DNA from: Scenedesmus sp. PABB004
Taxonomy: Eukaryota
Length of the DNA stretch: 64,000 bases
Assembly (NCBI GenBank): GCA_014905635.1
Contig: CM026548.1
Span: forward strand, 682,001-746,000
Reading direction: 5' to 3'
Numbering within the stretch: position 1 is the first letter of the stretch; the number at the start of each line of letters is the position of its first letter. Shown here piece by piece: positions 1 to 25,453 of this stretch. The notes beneath the pieces were generated by a model that was not told the DNA's origin, searched no databases, and was given only the letters and a program-made list of their open reading frames with translations. The translations under genes were made by a program, and so were the position numbers.

Positions 1-32
1 GGCCGCGGCGGCAGGCGGCGGCGGCGGCGCGC

Positions 33-3000
33 CTGCATGATGTTGGGGTGACTCAGCGCCGACGAGATGGCCGCCTCCATGATCGCCCTGCGGCGCGGCG
101 CGGCGCGGCGCGTTGGGCGAGGCGGTGGGGCGCGCGGTGCTGCAGTCGCCCGCGCAAGTCTGCCCCTGAGCGCGGAGGGGGGGGGGCAATGCAACGCCTC
201 GCTCACATCTTCTCGCGCTTCTCCTGCCCGCTCATGGCCTCCGGCAGCACGATCGTCTTGATCGCGACCACGCTGCCCTTCCACAGGCCCTTGTAGACCT
301 GCAGAGGGGACGGACACATCGCGGCGGCGGCGGGCGGGGTCGGCGCGCGCGCCGCGGCCGCGGCGGCGGGCGCGCGCCGCGGCGCGAAGGCCGCGGCGCC
401 GGCGGCGCGCGGGCGCACGGCCTGCGTGTGACCGCCCGCGCGGCGCACCTTGCCGTACGTGCCCTCGCCGAGCAGCTCGAGGCACTGGATGTGGTTCTCC
501 TCCGCGGTGGAGATGTTGGCGCGCGCGAGCTCGCGCCGCACCGCCTCGATGCGGTCTGCGCGCGGCGGTTAGGGGGCGCGCGGGTCAGCCGGCCGGCCCG
601 CCACGCAGGCGGCGGCGGCTGCGGTGCAGCGCGCGGCGCGCGGCGGCGCGGCGCGGCGCGCACCCAGCGCCATGCTGTGCCGGTTGCCCATGCCGCTGCT
701 GCCGCTGTTGGTCGCGGTGCCGCCGCTCGCCGCGGGCTGCGTGCCGACGAGCGCGGCGGCCTGGCTCTGGCAGTCGGCGATCGCCGCGAGCGCCTGGGGG
801 CTGTTCTCGCCGGGGCCGCAGGGGAAGCAGGCGATGAGGCCCGACATGCGGTAGAGCAGCGCCTCGGCGCGCGCCTTCTCCTCCTCCAGCCACGCCGTCG
901 TGCTGGCGAGCTTGTCGTTCGCCGCCTGCGCACGCAATCGCGGGGCGGGGCGGCGCGGGGCGCCGCGTGGGCCGCCGCCGCCGCACACACGCGGGCTCGC
1001 GCGCCGTGCGCCGCGCCAGCCCCCGGGTGGCCTGACGAGCCGGGCCAGCTTCTCTCAACGCACGGGCACTCCCTCGCACGCGAGCGCTCCCGTCCGAAGG
1101 TTGCTCCCCCATATATACAAACCACTACACCGCGCCGCGCACCTGCAGCTCGAGCGTGAGGCGCTCGTACTTGTCCTTGAGGTCGGCCTCCGCGGCGCGC
1201 TGCTCCGCGAGCAGGATGTAGTCGGCGCTGATGTCGTGCAGCGGGATGTCGCTCAGGAACACGCCGCTCGCCTGCGCGGGCGGGCGGCGGGCGGCGGGGC
1301 GTGTTAGTTGTTAGTTTTCGCGTTGTGTTGCGTCACGGCGACTGATGCCACGTCTGTGTGGTATTGAGGCGGGCGGCAAAGGCAGCGCGGCGGCGCCGGG
1401 GCCCTCTGCTGCCCCCTGCCCCTCCCTGCAGCGCCCCGCCGTGCCCCGTGTGCTCGCCTGCATCTCGCCGAGCCCGCGCACGCGCGGGGAGCCGAGGAAG
1501 ACGAGCACGCGGCACGGCGACGACGCGCCTGCCGGGCGGGCGGGTGGGGGGCGGGCGCGCGGGCGGCGGCACGCGCGGCGGGCGTGAGCGGCGGAGGAGC
1601 GAGGGGCCGCAACGCACGCCCCCGCGCGCGCGCGCGCGCGCGCGGGACAGAGAGGCGAGACAGGCGGCCGCGAGCGCGGAGCGGGCCCGCCGCGCGCCGC
1701 ACCCGGCAGCGTGACCTCTGTCGGCAGCATCTGTCCCTTGAGCGTGACGAGGCTCGCGCGCGCCTGCAGCACAAAGTGGTTGTTCGTGTGCAGCGCGATC
1801 GCGGCAAAGTCGAGCTGCACGTGCGCGGGGTGCTTGAACTGCACGCGGGCGGGCGCGGCGCGGGGACCGGGGCGCGCGAGTGGGCGTGGGCGCGGCGCGA
1901 GGGGGCTCAGCGCGGCGCCCGCGCGCAGCGGCCGCCGCAGCGCAGACGCCACGGCGGCCGCCGCCGCCGAGCCCTCCCGGCAGCCGCCGCCGCGCGCCCA
2001 GGGCACGGCCCCGCCCGCGCCCCCACCTTGAAGTGCTGGCGCAGGTGCTGCCCCTCGGCGAGCTCCGGCACGACGCGCGCGACGCCGGGGCCCCACTGCA
2101 GCAGCGTGAGGCCCTCGTCCATGATGAGGTGGAAGGGGTGCAGCTCGTAGAAGAGGGCCGGGGAGAGCGAGAACAGGCTCGCGCGCGCCTGCGCCGACGC
2201 GGCGCCCCAGCCGCGCAGCTGCGCCTGGTAGGGGTAGGAGAGCTTGAAGACCTGGCGGCGGCAGGGGAGGGCGGCGGCGGGGAGGGCGGGGGAGGCGGGC
2301 GGCGAGTCGGTGGGCGGCGAGCGGGCGGCGAGGGCGCGGCGCGGCGGCGAGGGCGTCGTCGGCGCTGGCGCACCTCGTGGTCGCAGTCGCCCGCCTCGCG
2401 CGAGCGCAGCAGCTCGACGCGCAGCTCGCCCTGGAGCTTGAAGTACGTCCCTGCCATGCCCCGTAGCACGCCGCGCACGATGGGCCACAGCCCCGGCCGG
2501 CTGCTGTAATAGTGCAGCACCAGGCTCTCGGGCGTCACCTGGCGCGGGGCGGCGCGGCGCGTCGGCGACGCGTGCGCGCGGCGGCAGCAGCGCGGCGGCG
2601 CCACGGGCGGCGACGCCACTGGCGGCGGCGGGCGGCCCGCCGGCGCCGCACCTCCTCGCAGCGGAACGCAGGGGCGATCATCTCGGGCCAGTGGTGGCTG
2701 AGGTGGAGGTGCAGGTTGTTCAGGTTCTGCAGGAACTCCGCCAGGTTGCTGCCCAGCACCGCCAGCAGCTTGGTGTAGCCCTGCAACGCGGCGGCGGCGG
2801 CGGCGGCGTGGGCACGGGCGCCCGGCTGCTGGCAGCCCGCGCCGCTGCTGCTGCTGGCGCCGCTGCCGCAGCTGCTGCCGCTGCGTCTGCTGCTGCCGCG
2901 CCGCTGCCACCGCTGCTGGCGCTGCCGCCCCGTGCGCATGCCAGGCCGGGGCCTGCGCACCTGGTCGCTGAGGTACTGGATGAAATAGAGGCCATACGCC

Positions 3001-3421
3001 TCCAGCGCATCGTTCACGCTCACGCCGAGGATGCCGGCGGCGGTCACAACGATGCTGCGGCGCGGCGGCGGCAACGCGGTGAGCGCGCGCGGGCCGCTGC
3101 TGCGCGCGGGCCGCTGCTGCGCGCAGGCCGCTGGTGCGCGCGCGCCGCCGGGCGCGCGCGCGCTGCCCCCGCGGCTCACTCATAGGTGACCTTGTCGGAG
3201 TAGGGGCAGGACGAGACCTGCGCGTGCGCATGCGCGCAGCGGCGGGGCGATCAGCGGCTGCGGGCGCCCGCGGCGGCGCGCGCGGCAGCGGCGCGGCGCT
3301 GCACACGGCCGCGCACCCAGGTCGCCGGCACTTGGGACGCCGTGAGCACCTCCTCCCACTTGTCGGCGCCGAAGGTGTCGGTGATGAAGGCCTGCACCGA
3401 CAGGTTGATCCAGCCCAGCAT
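33..3421 (-). CDS. H-NOX (HNOB) + PAS/HNOBA + coiled coil + Ser/Thr protein kinase fusion; partial, continues off the window start
   Basis: 13 in-phase exons: 3421-3317, 3217-3180, 3054-2961, 2780-2652, 2538-2374, 2251-2027, 1838-1703, 1528-1458, 1271-1143, 925-664, 555-449, 298-207, 87-33. sGC-like motifs MLGWIN, FLQNLNNLHLHL, MIAPAFRC, HYYSSRPGL, FYELHPFHLIMD, LKGQM, FLGSP, FLSDIPLHD, LEEEKARAEALLYRM. These are followed by kinase motifs LGEGTYGKV, VAIK and AIMEAAISSALSHPNI. Confidence 0.9.
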
Positions 3422-4309
3422 CGCGCCGGCGGCCGCGGCTGCGGCTGCGGCGACGGCGGCGCCGCCGTCGCGCGCGCGTGGGCCGCCGCGGCGCCGCCGC
3501 CGCCCCGCAGCCCGCCCCAGCGACGCCCAGGCCACCGCCCGGGCCTGCCAGCGCGCCCGGGCGGCCCGACGCGGCGGCGGCGCGGCGCACCGGCCTGCGA
3601 GGGCGACCCTGGCGACTCGGCGTAGCTCCCGGGCCCCTCCCGCTCACGTGCACGCCCCGCTGGGCGCACCGCCCGCCCGGGCACGCATGCTGCCGGTGAA
3701 GAACGCCTGGGCGGGGTCGGCTGGGCGCGGCGGGCGGCCGGGGCGGGGCTGACAGGCGGAGGTGAGCAGGTGCGCGCACGCCGCGCGGGCCGCGGGAGAG
3801 CACGACCCGGGCTGTGAGGCGGGGAGGGCGCTGCTTCTACGGCGGCGGGGGGCGTCCAGGCGCGCCAGGGCTGCGGCCGGAGATGCACGAGAGCATGTGT
3901 TGCGCCCGCGAACCCGGCATGACAAGCGCGCCCCGTCTCCGCCCGCGCGAGACAGCCCGCGACGATCAACCCGCCACGCGGAGCGCACCAGCGCGACTTG
4001 GCACCGCGCGGGGGGCCTTGGAGCAGCAGCGCCGCGCCCGGCCACCAGCGCTCCACAAGGCCCGCGTCCCGCTGTTCGGAGTGCCGTTTGCGGACATGCA
4101 ACGCGCACCCGCGCGCGCCTAGGCGCCCCGGGCTGGTGGGGCGCGGCGCCTCGGTGCGCAGCGTGCCCCGCGCGCCCCGGGGCGCGGCCGTGCAGGCTTG
4201 GCGGAGCCCGGACGCTCGCTCGCGGGCGGGCTGCGCCGCCAGAGCAGGCGCTGGCCCGGACAGCTGGCAGCCGGCTCACACGCCGCTCGTTCGCTCGCGC
4301 AGGGGCGCC

Positions 4310-5728
4310 ATGGGCGGCAAGGACGCCCGCAAGCAGCGGCCGCCGGATGAGGAGATCAGGTCAGGCGGCGCGGGGGCCGCCGCGCGCGCGCCGCGCGCCG
4401 CGGCGGGCGCAGCCTGGCGCGCCGCTGCCGCCGACCGCCGCCCGCCGCCGCGCCCGCGCGCGCAGGCGGGCGCTCTGGCGCGTCGCCGCGCGCGTGCCGT
4501 GGCCGGCCGTGCTCGCGGTGTGCCTCTACCTCCCCGGCATCGTCCTCTGGGCGGTCTACAGCCTGCGCTGCAAGGCGAGCACGTTTGTGTTCCTGACCAC
4601 CATCGCCTCTGTGAGCCAGGAGACGGTCGACGGCGTGACCAACACCGTCAACACCACGCTCATCACGCTCGCCGCGGGCGGGACGTTCATCTTTGCGCTG
4701 CTGCTCGTGCTCGCGATCGCGCGCAGCGTGCAGCGCAGCGGCCTCGCGCCCGACGCGGCCTGCCCCTGCGGTGCGCCCTGCCGCCGCCGCGCCGCCGCGC
4801 CGCTCCCTCTCTGCTCCACCCACCCTTCACCTTCCTCCCTCGCCGCCGCTCGCCGCTCGCCGCCCACCACTCACCACTCGCCACGCCGCGCCACTCACCA
4901 CGCCGCGCAGCGCGGCCAAGCCCGAGCTCGCTCTACCTGTACCGCGTGTTCAACCTAGGGTTTAACATCATCGTCTTCTTCGTAAACATGGCCATCATCC
5001 TGCTCATGATGGGCGCGTTCCTCTGGCTCGTCGTCGCGTACGCGGCAAACGTGTCGATCAAGTTTGGCGTGCGGTGCGCGCGCGCGGGCGGGCAGCGGGC
5101 GCCGGCGCGCGCCGGCGCCTGCGCCGCTTTGCCCTGCGCGCCGCGCGCCGCCCACGGCCGCACGCCGCCGCCCACGCCCACACGCCGCCACGCGCCGCAG
5201 CGACGCGGCCGAGAACGGCGTCGACCCGGTCAGCGAGTTTCAGCTCGCCAACCACAACTACACGACCGTCGTGTCGTCGTACGAGCGCCAGCTCGCGGCC
5301 GCGCCGCCGTGCGTGTCCAACGGCACGTGGCTGCGCGGCATCAACGCGAGCATACGAGGCATCCTCGCGCCGCCGCCCAACGCGACCGACGGCGCCAACA
5401 CGTTCCTCTGCCCCCAGAGCTGCCTCAACCTCGGGAGCTTCGCCACGCTCTTCAAGCTGAGCCAGAACTGCATCTGCAACGCCGCCGCGCTCTACGCGCT
5501 GCAGCAGCACAGCCTGACCGTGTCGACCGAGGCCGGCGCCGCGCTGGGCGGGTCGATCCTCATCTACCTCGCCTGCTGCTGCCTGCACGCGTACCTCATC
5601 AGCCAGCACGTCCACGCCGGCTACGATTACCGCGCAGCGAAGCAGCAGTACGCCGCGATGCTCAAGCAGCGGCGCCGCCGCGCCGGCGGCGCCGACGGCG
5701 GCGGCGGCGGCGCGCAGGGGCCGGGCGA

Positions 5729-5763
<35 letters not shown>

Positions 5764-6665
5764 GCGGCGGCGCCGTTGACGCGGCGTGGGAGACCGGCGG
5801 CGGCGACCTGGAGGCGGGCCTCGGCGGCGTGGAGCGCAGCCTCAGCCGCAGCCGCAGCCGCAGCGCCAACGGCGCGGCGGGCCGCCTCTCCGGCGACGGC
5901 GGCCCCCCGTTTGAGGCCGGCGGCGCCGCCGGCGGCGGCGCGCCAGCAGCAGCGGCGGCGGCCGTTGCCTGGCACGGCAGCGCGCGCAGCGGCCACAGCC
6001 CGCTGGGGCGGCACAGCCACCAGAGCAGCGGCGGCAGCGGCGCGGCGGCGCCCGGCCCGGGCGGCGCGCCGCAGCACGGGCGGCAGCGCAGCACGAGCGC
6101 GAGCGGCAGCAGCAGCGGCGGCGGCGGCGCGCGCGCGCCGGCGGCGTGGGCGGGCCCCAGCGCCGCGGAGCTGGCGCTGCTGGCGCGCGCGAGCCCGCAG
6201 CTGGGCGTGCCGGCGCGCCTGTCGAGCTTTGGCAGCGTCGAGGAGCACCGGCAGCACATCGACCAGCGGGCCTACCACCCAAGCGGCAGCGCGACGCTCG
6301 GCGCGCCGGGGCGCCACGGCGGCGCGCGCGCGGGCAGCGAGGGCCGCTCCAGCGCGGGCAGCATCCGTGAGCTCCTCTCGGGCGCGGTGCCGCTTGAGCC
6401 GCACGGCGGGCAGCACCTGTCGCACGGCGGCGGCGGCGCTGCAGCGCCCGGCCGGCCGGGCGGCGGGCTGCACAAGGCCAGCAGCAGCGGGGGGTCATTT
6501 GAGAGCATGATCTATCACTCCCCCCGCACCAGCGATGCCGGCGCCGCCGGCGGCAGCAGCCCCGGCGGCGCGGCGCTCGCGGGCGCCGCGGTCGCGGCGG
6601 GCGTGCTTGACCTCAGCCCCGCGGGGCTGGGCCGCCTCGCGGCGGCGGCGCCCGCGGGCTGGGGC

Positions 6666-23200: not shown

Positions 23201-25453
23201 CTGAGCTACTCGGAGTGGCTCGCCGGCCTGCTGCGCCAGTGCAAGGGCAGCCCCGCGGGCCTGCCCCCGCTCGGCGCGGGCGCCGCGGCGGCGGCGGGCC
23301 TGCCGGCCACGCGCGTCGCCGCGTGCGCGGCGCTCGGGGACGAGACGCAGCGCATCGCGGCGGCCACGCTCAGCGGCGCGGGCGACGTGCTCGTGTCGAC
23401 GCTCGGCGCGCAGCTCACGCGCCAGTGGGCGTGCAACAGCGTCGCCCCGGGCGGCTGCGCGACTGCGCCGGGCTGCCAGCTCGCGCTCGCGGGCACGGTC
23501 ACGCCCGGCAGCGCGGGCGCGGCGGGCGCCGCCGCGCCGGCCGCGGCGGCGAGCGCGGAGCTCCTGCTCGGCGGCGGCGCGTCGGGCGGCCCGACGCTCG
23601 CGTGCCAGGCGACCGACGCGGCGCTCGTGCTGACCAGCTGGACCAACGCCAGCAAGTCTGCCCTCGCGGCGGGCGGCTCCTGCGAGGATTTCTTGCTCCT
23701 GCCCGACTGCGAGGCGCTGCCCGCGGCGGCGACGTGCAACAACTACGGCGCCTGCCGCTGGGAGCCCGGCGCGCAGCGCGACCTGCTGCACACCGCGGGC
23801 GGCAACGCCTCGGCCGCCGGCGGCGGCGCGGCGCCGCCGCCCGGCGCCAAGGGCGGCTGCGCGGTCGACTGGGTCGCGGTGCTCAAGAGCGGCGGCGGCG
23901 CCGCGTACGCGCCGCTTGGCAGCATGGCCAGCCTGTGTGGCGGCATCGCCGACGCGGCGACGTGCGGCGCGCAGTCTATGATCATCTCCCTCGACGCGAC
24001 CGTCGGCGCGGCGGCGCCGAGCATGGCGCGCGTGTGGGTCCCCGCGCTCGTTGTCGCGACGGTGCTCGGCCTCGTCGCCTTTGGCGCGGCCGTGCTCTGG
24101 CGGCGGCGCTCCGCGCTCGCGCGCCGCGCGGCCGAGGAGGCGGCGGCCGCCGGCGGCGGCGGCGCCGGGTCGGGCCGCGGCGGGCGCCGCGGCGCGCGCG
24201 GCGGCGCGGCGCGCGGCGACGGCGGCAAGGGCGCCAAGGGCGCCAAGGGCGGCGCCGCGGGCGGCGCCAAGAAGAAGGTCAAGCGCGCCGAGCCGGGCAG
24301 CTACAAGCCCGACCTCATGCGCGACTCGTTCACCGACTACATGCGCGCCGCGCCGCAGCAGTTCACCGCGGGCGTCGCGCTCGCGCGCGCCGCGCAGGCG
24401 GCGGGCGGGCTCGACGCCGCGCTCGCGGCGGGCGACGTCGCGGGCGGGCACGCGCTCGGCGGCGGCGGCGGCGGCGGCGCGCACGGCCAGCCGCCCGCGG
24501 CGGCGGCGGCGCACGCGCCGCCGGCCGGCGGGCTGGGCCTGGGCATGGGCGCGCCGCTCGCGGCGCCGCGCGGGCCGGGCGGGCTCGGCGTGCCGCGCGT
24601 GAGCGGCTCGCTGCCGCCGCTGCCGCCCGGCGCGCACGCCGGCGGCGGCGCGGGCGGCGGGCCGTCGGACCTGATCGACCTGCAGGGCGGCGGCGCGGCG
24701 CAGCAGCAGCAGCAGCACCACCTGCACCAGCCGCACGCGCCCGCGGGCCTCCCGTACGGCGCGGGCGGCGGGCTGTGGGGCGCGGCCGGCGGCGGCGGCG
24801 GCGGCCGCCTCAGCGGCGGCGGCCTGAGCGCGGGGCTCAGCGGCGGCCTGCTCAGCGGCGGGCTGTCCGGCGAGGTCGACCTTCTCGACACGGGCGCCAG
24901 CCTCGCGCTCACGAGCAGCCTGGGGCTGGTGAGCTCGCTGCCGCAGCACGCCAGCCTGCAGCCCGACATGGCGGCGCTGCTCGGCGCGGCGGCGGGCGCG
25001 GCGGCGCCGCTGCAGGCGCCGCACGCGGGTGGCGGCGAGCTGCGGCTCGGCCTGCCGCGCGGCGGCGGCGGCCGCCTCGGCGCGCCCGGCGCGGCGGCCG
25101 ACGGCGGCGGCTCCGGCGCGCTGCTGCTGGGCAGCCGGGCGAGCGGCGACATCGAGGACGGCGCGTCCACGCCGACCAGCAGCTGCTGCCACGACAGCGT
25201 GTGCACGTTCCGGCACGGCGCGGGCAGCAGCGTGGGCAGCGGCCCGGCGCGGCCGGGGCCGGGCAGCGCCGCGGGCAGCTGGCGCGGCGGGCCGCGGCCG
25301 CCGAGCGCCGCGCGCGGCGGCGCGAGCGCGAGCGGGCTCGCGGGCGCGCTGTCGGGCGCGCACAGCGGCGCGCTGAGCCGCAGCAGCTGGAGCAGCGCGC
25401 TCTCGACCGACATGCTCATGTCGAGCCAGCACTCGGCGGTGGTTGACCCCTGA
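20262..25453 (+). CDS. Large type I membrane protein with a Cys-rich ectodomain; function unknown
   Basis: Signal peptide (RALLAALLLAAAGAA), spliced Cys-rich exons, a single TM (VWVPALVVATVLGLVAFGAAVLW then RRR) and a Gly-rich tail. One frameshift near 22927. Confidence 0.65.

Follow-up and report, generated by a model that had tools for sequence, protein, structure and literature searches.

An H-NOX/PAS sensor module joined to a TKL-like protein kinase: a candidate heme-based gas-sensor kinase in the green alga Scenedesmus sp. PABB004

The DNA analyzed here, referred to as the window, is a 64,000-nucleotide (nt) stretch of contig CM026548.1 (positions 682,001–746,000) from Scenedesmus sp. 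PABB004, a chlorophycean alga of the order Sphaeropleales. Near its start, on the minus strand from position 3421 down to 33, lies a gene whose product combines the sensory part of a soluble guanylate cyclase (sGC), consisting of an H-NOX domain, an HNOBA/PAS region and a coiled coil, with a linker and a protein kinase domain. Thirteen phase-consistent exons were rebuilt from the window; they add up to 1608 nt, or 536 codons free of stops. Their translation is identical, letter for letter, to residues 1–536 of P0001, a deposited 1037-residue GenBank protein ("Gucy1b1 [Scenedesmus sp. PABB004]") that was retrieved by searching with exon 10 alone among longer proteins (100% identity). The interval 33–3421 is thus confirmed as the 5′ half of one nuclear gene for an H-NOX–HNOBA/PAS–coiled coil–linker–kinase protein. 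The 13 exons and the sensory modules had been proposed earlier from the DNA letters alone (the original prediction), and these coordinates proved exact. The C-terminal half of the protein, the 501 residues that follow the window edge, is taken from P0001.

All exons are on the minus strand, and the first five encode the H-NOX domain. Exon 1 (3317..3421) provides the ATG (3421–3419), which is the first in its frame past an upstream stop (open reading frame, ORF, 3251..3643), and the first 35 residues of the domain; on its own it matches positions 2–30 of the Pfam HNOB profile (E = 0.0087). Exon 2 (3180..3217), 38 nt long, is required for the reading frame and is found in P0001. It is followed by exon 3 (2961..3054; HNOB profile 49–77), by exon 4 (2652..2780; profile 80–123, E = 6.7e-10), which carries the codon of the proximal His103 at 2711–2709, and by exon 5 (2374..2538; profile 126–159, E = 2.3e-8), which holds the end of the domain with the YxSxR motif (residues 132–136) and the distal Ile142. 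Exon 6 (2027..2251) contains an inter-domain stretch and the start of the HNOBA/PAS region (HNOBA profile 2–50, E = 1.6e-5). The PAS core is encoded by exon 7 (1703..1838), which aligns to sGC β1 and is modeled by AlphaFold2 (AF2) as strands over residues 251–313 with a predicted local confidence (pLDDT) near 90. Exon 8 (1458..1528) continues the PAS domain; it is followed by the donor gcgagc of the only complete GC-AG intron, and the residue count across this join is the same as in sGC β1. Exon 9 (1143..1271) completes the PAS domain and begins the coiled coil (HNOBA profile 146–187, E = 1.9e-6), which AF2 models as a helix over residues 339–397.

The transition to the kinase takes place between exons 10 and 11. 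Exon 10 (664..925) encodes the end of the coiled coil (LLYRM, residues 387–391), an SGLIACFP motif and a low-complexity linker, with pLDDT below 50 over residues 397–410 and 412–451. Exon 11 (449..555), which lacks an in-frame ATG, encodes a pre-kinase helix (RIEAVRREL) and the glycine-rich loop GEGTYGKV; exon 12 (207..298) adds strand β3 with the catalytic Lys501 (VAIK), and exon 13 (33..87) the αC helix with Glu516 and the HPNI motif, after which the gene leaves the window. When the exon translations were scanned individually with Pfam, six of 12 pieces matched HNOB (exons 1, 3, 4 and 5) or HNOBA (exons 6 and 9), in collinear order. No Pfam match was obtained for the three kinase exons taken singly or for the unspliced frame 203–568, pieces that are too short or interrupted; the kinase identity of exons 11–13 thus rests on the full-length protein, because these exons are too short to score alone.

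The 12 complete introns are 99–217 nt long. All of them end in AG, and 11 begin with GT, the exception being the GC donor of intron 8 (after position 1458). Six of the 11 GT introns, intron 10 included, share the donor hexamer GTGCGC. The donor that follows exon 13 at the window edge (after position 33) is also GC, so that the gene has a pair of GC donors. The G+C content is lowest in introns 8 and 9 (73% and 76%, compared with 80–90% in the remaining introns).

Intron 10 (556..663) is critical for the architecture. It is a GT-AG intron of 108 nt with an in-frame TAA at 571–569; the fusion of sensor and kinase therefore needs splicing, and an unspliced message would end at this TAA. Its removal links positions 664 and 555 without creating a stop, as originally predicted, and the same join is present in P0001. 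The TAA, together with the fact that the deposited P0001 is itself a prediction, could be taken to mean that two genes have been wrongly merged, a sensor-only protein ending at this stop and a separate kinase gene downstream. We consider this very improbable. Exon 11 has no ATG, and the only methionine in frame before the lysine strand lies past the glycine-rich loop (ORF 203..568), so that an independent kinase gene starting there would lose its ATP-binding loop. The donor and acceptor of intron 10 resemble those of the other introns of the gene, and the motifs on either side of the linker are conserved across the fusion proteins. Moreover, the order sensor–linker–kinase recurs in single ORFs of relatives. 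Two of these, in which sensor and kinase share one ORF, are transcript-derived: P0003 is an ORF of 766 residues on a EukProt transcript record (71% identical to P0001), and P0179 is an MMETSP transcript ORF of 958 residues that is labelled complete. A third, P0009, comprises 1063 residues in one uninterrupted ORF on a 4179-base contig. Set against the 12 introns within the first 536 codons of the Scenedesmus gene, the uninterrupted fused ORFs of these relatives are good evidence for a fused mature mRNA.

The fusion is not confined to Scenedesmus. In our own Pfam scans, 11 database proteins contain both kinase and sensor domains. Ten of these have HNOB, HNOBA and a kinase domain (P0001, P0003, P0009, P0010, P0011, P0034, P0035, P0074, P0179 and P0180; P0074 reaches the kinase start only), and P0013 is N-truncated and retains HNOBA and the kinase. 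Two further models, P0017 and P0045, are truncated, and their alignments reach the start of the kinase. P0034 comes from Chlamydomonas sp. UWO 241 and P0180 from Haematococcus lacustris, of the order Chlamydomonadales; both are annotated as hypothetical proteins. Judged from these sequences, at least two orders of Chlorophyceae have conserved the architecture. A metagenome scan with P0001 yielded four loci, with tblastn matches to the kinase part only and no sensor match in any of the four, a result that says nothing on the fusion. The ESM Atlas returned kinase clusters only, none with HNOB, which is a lead at most that the fusion architecture forms no large cluster there.

The sensory half of P0001 is closely related to the β subunit of sGC. 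The HNOB profile (PF07700) matches residues 3–158 over profile positions 2–158 of 163 with 145.3 bits (gathering cut-off 25.5, E = 2e-42), and HNOBA (PF07701), located between the H-NOX domain and the output domain, scores 106.1 bits (cut-off 23.4, E = 2.4e-30). In a search of solved structures, residues 1–391 align with residues 1–397 of human sGC β1 (6jt0_B, E = 2.8e-55). The heme-site residues correspond in this alignment: His103 to His105, Tyr132, Ser134 and Arg136 of the YxSxR motif to Tyr135, Ser137 and Arg139, and Ile142 to Ile145. Across 26 sensors linked to either a kinase or a cyclase, His103, YxSxR and Pro116 hardly vary; among the fusion proteins the proximal histidine is present in all ten rows that cover it and YxSxR in nine of ten. 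The AF2 model of the whole protein, computed from a 26-sequence alignment, has a mean pLDDT of 61.8 and a predicted template-modeling score (pTM) of 0.36, with the H-NOX and PAS blocks mostly at pLDDT 75–93 and the PAS-like fold at about 90. The H-NOX domain probably binds ferrous heme.

The position aligned with Ile145 of sGC β1 is one that we take to be the distal-pocket site occupied by tyrosine in oxygen (O2)-binding H-NOX proteins. All ten fusion rows have isoleucine or leucine here, not tyrosine, which, provided that this site is the relevant one, argues against an O2 sensor comparable to the atypical animal sGCs in place of a sensor of nitric oxide (NO) or carbon monoxide (CO). Such an O2 sensor, for which one could cite the link of green-algal H-NOX cyclases, e.g. 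CYG12, to hypoxia responses (described in passages of PMC8728061), seems to us distinctly improbable. The lack of a distal-pocket tyrosine as a pointer to NO rather than O2 signaling has been argued for Acanthamoeba, in sections of PMC4053784. In the NO/CO sensor that we favor for P0001, the ferrous heme would bind NO or CO rather than O2.

The resemblance to sGC continues through the coiled coil, a single long helix over residues 339–397 in the AF2 model. The alignment with sGC β1 stops at LLYRM (LLYSV in sGC β1), the last turn before the cyclase domain, and the sensory module thus ends where the original prediction had placed the entry into a cyclase. Past LLYRM, P0001 has a short conserved motif, a variable linker, a conserved helix and then the kinase. 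The fusion proteins have a conserved block on either side of the variable linker, (R)MSGL(I/L)ACFP next to the coiled coil and (R/V)IEAVRR next to the kinase, and the sequences of relatives run on uninterrupted across the point equivalent to the intron 10 join. Five fusion proteins (P0011, P0017, P0034, P0035 and P0045) lack exactly 14 residues of the coiled coil, at about residues 365–378 of P0001; because 14 residues make up two heptads, their loss leaves the register of the helix intact.

By analogy with sGC, the PAS and coiled-coil regions may form a homodimer. A prediction with two copies of residues 195–400 scored 0.47, compared with 0.00 for the best of three controls, with a contact agreement of at least 63% and a partner pLDDT of at least 77 in the runs. 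Of 30 proteins solved as one-chain pairs, 21 reach the mark used, and of 23 single chains none does; for eukaryotes it is reached by 17 of 29, and by only one of seven eukaryotic proteins without an older solved relative. Dimers of the PAS/coiled-coil region of sGC have already been solved; passing the mark may therefore reflect memory and shows likeness only.

The C-terminal half of P0001 contains a protein kinase domain that matches PK_Tyr_Ser-Thr (PF07714; 137.8 bits, cut-off 23.1, E = 5.4e-40) marginally above Pkinase (PF00069; 136.9 bits, cut-off 31.7, E = 1.1e-39). The N-lobe elements that had been recognized in the window (glycine-rich loop, VAIK, the αC glutamate and HPNI) are borne out by the full-length protein, and the C-lobe, which was expected to lie outside, is indeed present there. 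The catalytic motifs are GEGTYGKV at 481, VAIK at 498, HSDLKARN at 652, DFG at 678 and APE at 704. Lys501 and Glu516 are nearly invariant in the 26-sequence conservation analysis. Nor does a cyclase trail the kinase, in line with the original prediction: no match to Guanylate_cyc (PF00211) was found at E ≤ 0.001 in P0001, P0003, P0009 or P0010 by a scan that detects this domain in the cyclase relatives. The deposited name "Gucy1b1" (guanylate cyclase beta-1) is a misnomer, as it implies the function of a cyclase domain that is missing here. The best solved relatives of the kinase, MLK4 (4uya, E = 5.4e-28), MLK1, TAK1, ZAK and DLK, agree with the tyrosine kinase-like (TKL)/MAP3K-like type proposed originally, where the MAP3K assignment denotes sequence likeness to MLK-type MAP3Ks only. 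In the AF2 model most C-lobe blocks have pLDDT 66–96. About 240 low-complexity residues lie C-terminal to the kinase, and the model is disordered from residue 836 on.

The catalytic loop is not of the RD type: HRD is replaced by HSD in P0001 and most relatives, and by HGD in two. This missing arginine and a 58-residue low-confidence insert in the N-lobe (residues 537–594) are features that a pseudokinase or scaffold, signaling by binding and not by phosphorylation, might show. Non-RD kinases are normally active. The full set of catalytic residues is present, and the glycine-rich loop, lysine, glutamate, catalytic aspartate and asparagine, DFG and APE are kept in all complete relatives, which makes a pseudokinase hardly probable at all. 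By its sequence, the domain is a complete, non-RD Ser/Thr kinase of the TKL/MAP3K-like type.

To place the sensor, a maximum-likelihood tree was calculated from 36 sensor modules, of which 11 are kinase-linked, 23 cyclase-linked and one phosphodiesterase (PDE)-linked, and one (P0113) has no assigned output. Five fragments with fewer than 100 aligned residues and P0143 were omitted, and three animal-type sGCs served as outgroup. All kinase-linked sensors are nested with algal cyclase sensors in one clade (support 100/100). P0001 belongs to a five-member clade in which every sensor is kinase-linked (98/97), and there are two more supported kinase-linked clades of three rows each, one of which contains P0113. 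The nearest cyclase-type relatives of P0001 are sGCs of Volvocales, including CHLRE_16g649050v5 of Chlamydomonas reinhardtii (P0014), with 51–55% identity over the sensor.

The kinase half is part of a larger algal family, and many of the best 150 representatives match P0001 only from about residue 356 or 440 onward. Thirteen family members without a match to the sensor module align to the coiled coil of P0001 (355/362–398); HNOB and HNOBA were found in none of the ten of these that were scanned with Pfam. For example, P0050 is 49% identical to P0001 over 45 coiled-coil residues. A CHASE domain is found by Pfam in two members of the kinase family, P0046 and P0059, and P0026 (Rsub_01082, Raphidocelis) looks like a membrane receptor kinase. 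The modules seen upstream of an sGC-like coiled coil in this family are CHASE, a membrane receptor-like region and Lipase_3 (members P0046, P0059, P0026 and P0087). In the last 17 positions up to LLYRM, P0001 matches the cyclase P0014 at 12 and the kinase P0050 at eight; beyond LLYRM it resembles kinases only. The simplest reading of this pattern, and the most likely origin of the fusion, is an exchange of domains where a coiled coil common to both parents ends. The parents would have been a green-algal sGC and a member of the algal receptor-type TKL kinase family.

We conclude, with a probability of about 0.72, that the gene encodes a one-component heme-based gas-sensor kinase, in which an H-NOX/PAS/coiled-coil sensor is combined with a TKL kinase. 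Binding of the gas to the heme would alter the dimer geometry of the PAS and coiled-coil regions, as in sGC, and the change in the dimer would shift the activity of the kinase, so that the gas signal would leave the protein as phosphorylation, without cyclic GMP (cGMP). It may be that the ligand activates the kinase, which at this stage is a guess by analogy with sGC.

Several observations weigh against this interpretation. In this species, the 664/555 join rests on orthologues and on P0001, itself a deposited prediction. Between the coiled coil and the kinase, pLDDT in the AF2 model is below 50 (residues 460–472 in addition to the two stretches of exon 10), the N-lobe of the kinase reaches only 52–64, and among relatives the linker can be as short as about 30 residues or exceed 200. 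A linker that is variable and predicted to be disordered renders a rigid helix-to-enzyme coupling of the sGC kind doubtful. The backbone of the sensor tree is unresolved, leaving the kinase-linked sensors as three supported groups and the long branch of P0074. Forcing the 12 rows that are kinase-linked or of unknown output together costs 5.09 log-likelihood units (approximately unbiased test, p = 0.083); this neither establishes nor excludes that the kinase-linked sensors arose only once. Finally, the portions of PMC8728061 that deal with the Chlamydomonas sGCs describe CYG12 and CYG56 as insensitive to NO in vitro and report that CO activates CYG11. It is therefore unsafe to assign NO as the ligand of an algal H-NOX domain, and we leave the ligand as "NO or CO".

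Some of these points would also fit a module that is real and yet does not sense gas: the H-NOX domain might be free of heme, or might report on heme availability or redox state; or else the PAS domain might bind another ligand, with the sGC-like part acting chiefly as a scaffold for dimerization of the kinase. An NO response in vitro is missing in two of the three Chlamydomonas sGCs treated in these portions of PMC8728061, the disordered linker argues against tight allosteric coupling, and in the kinase family a similar coiled coil follows sensors of unrelated kinds, such that dimerization alone could be its role. The proximal histidine, YxSxR and Pro116 are nevertheless nearly invariant over the 26 sensors and are kept in nine or ten of ten fusion rows, which is what selection for heme binding would be expected to produce. 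We therefore regard a module without gas sensing as unlikely, while giving it more weight than the other alternatives, and retain the gas-sensor kinase as the preferred reading.

A broader proposal, to which we give somewhat less than an even chance, is that these proteins form a family of chlorophycean kinases that serve as direct heme-NO/CO receptors and bypass cGMP, and that the sGC-like coiled coil is a general green-algal connector through which H-NOX/PAS, CHASE and other sensors feed one Ser/Thr kinase output, in parallel to its use in cyclases.

Full-text literature searches, which left most subscription journals uncovered and could have missed a brief mention, found no paper describing a fusion of H-NOX with a protein kinase. 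Related systems are treated in parts of several reports: H-NOX proteins of Acanthamoeba that are not joined to cyclases (PMC4053784), choanoflagellate sGCs with the canonical three domains (bioRxiv 10.1101/2022.02.14.480389), and the sGCs of Chlamydomonas (PMC4620153 and PMC8728061). The remark in the original prediction that it knew of no characterized protein with this architecture holds for the literature searched; the protein itself was already deposited, with precomputed domains. The fusion proteins are public under labels such as "hypothetical protein" or guanylate cyclase subunit, and are uncharacterized, not unseen. Names such as "Gucy1b1" would inflate the count of algal guanylate cyclases.

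There is as yet no settled account of NO perception in the green lineage. As summarized in sections of PMC8728061, a survey of more than 1000 species of this lineage found the full NO/cGMP cascade in not a single one, and a direct link between guanylate cyclase and NO is yet to be established in algae. The fusion is a testable candidate for a cGMP-independent receptor in these organisms. It also represents a natural experiment on the mechanism of sGC: with the same transducer, a flexible linker and an unrelated enzyme, it tests what the transducer transmits.

Elsewhere in the window, tblastn with the 178 retrieved proteins detected no second copy of a kinase, cyclase or sensor outside positions 1–3600. 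The G+C content is 73–83% in every 2-kb block, so high that long spurious ORFs occur in all six frames and ORF length alone is uninformative. Upstream of the gene start, the plus strand has long open frames with hydrophobic, membrane-like stretches at 3750–5800, which may belong to a divergently transcribed neighbor. The sole tRNA identified by ARAGORN in the 64 kb is a tRNA-Leu (CAG) on the plus strand (24775–24872); its length of 98 bases suggests a long variable arm or an intron.

Among known systems, β-type sGCs (human β1, 6jt0_B, and the algal sGCs) are the closest to the sensory half. Over residues 1–391 they share with P0001 the collinear arrangement of H-NOX, HNOBA/PAS and coiled coil, the proximal histidine and YxSxR, a non-polar distal position and the same LLY(R/S)(M/V) end. 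They differ in what follows, a class III cyclase domain in sGC and a linker with a protein kinase in P0001; having no cyclase domain, P0001 cannot have cGMP as its output. The same sensor module occurs with other outputs as well: P0173 (1507 residues) contains HNOB, HNOBA and PDEase_I by our own Pfam scan, and the diatom proteins P0194 and P0195 contain HNOB, HNOBA, Guanylate_cyc and PDEase_I according to precomputed domains.

The catalytic half has two sets of counterparts. Algal receptor-type kinases (P0046, P0059 and P0026) are about 46–54% identical in the kinase domain, have the pre-kinase helix and mostly possess a similar upstream coiled coil, whereas their sensor is CHASE, an extracellular region or unassigned, and Pfam finds neither H-NOX nor HNOBA in any of them. 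MLK-type and other TKL MAP3Ks (MLK4, 4uya; MLK1, 4uy9/3dtc; TAK1; ZAK; DLK) are the best solved catalytic relatives, with E-values from 5.4e-28 to about 1e-20; they carry other N-terminal regulatory domains, and the algal kinase differs from them in its HSD (non-RD) loop and in a long insert within the N-lobe.

Two further systems resemble the predicted function. The heme-regulated eIF2α kinase HRI is a Ser/Thr kinase of eukaryotes whose activity is controlled by the heme it binds (PMC9520036), and it has been linked to NO (PMC5312282). This likeness is functional only; the heme region of HRI is unrelated to H-NOX, its kinase belongs to another family, and no homology is implied. In bacterial systems of the HnoX/HnoK type, a heme-containing H-NOX sensor likewise governs a kinase, as the regulation of histidine kinase activity by H-NOX proteins illustrates (PMC4436077), the control of the kinase in P0001 being predicted. 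There, the sensor and a histidine kinase are separate proteins that act in a phosphorelay, whereas in the alga a single polypeptide combines the H-NOX domain with an sGC-type transducer and a Ser/Thr kinase of the TKL type.

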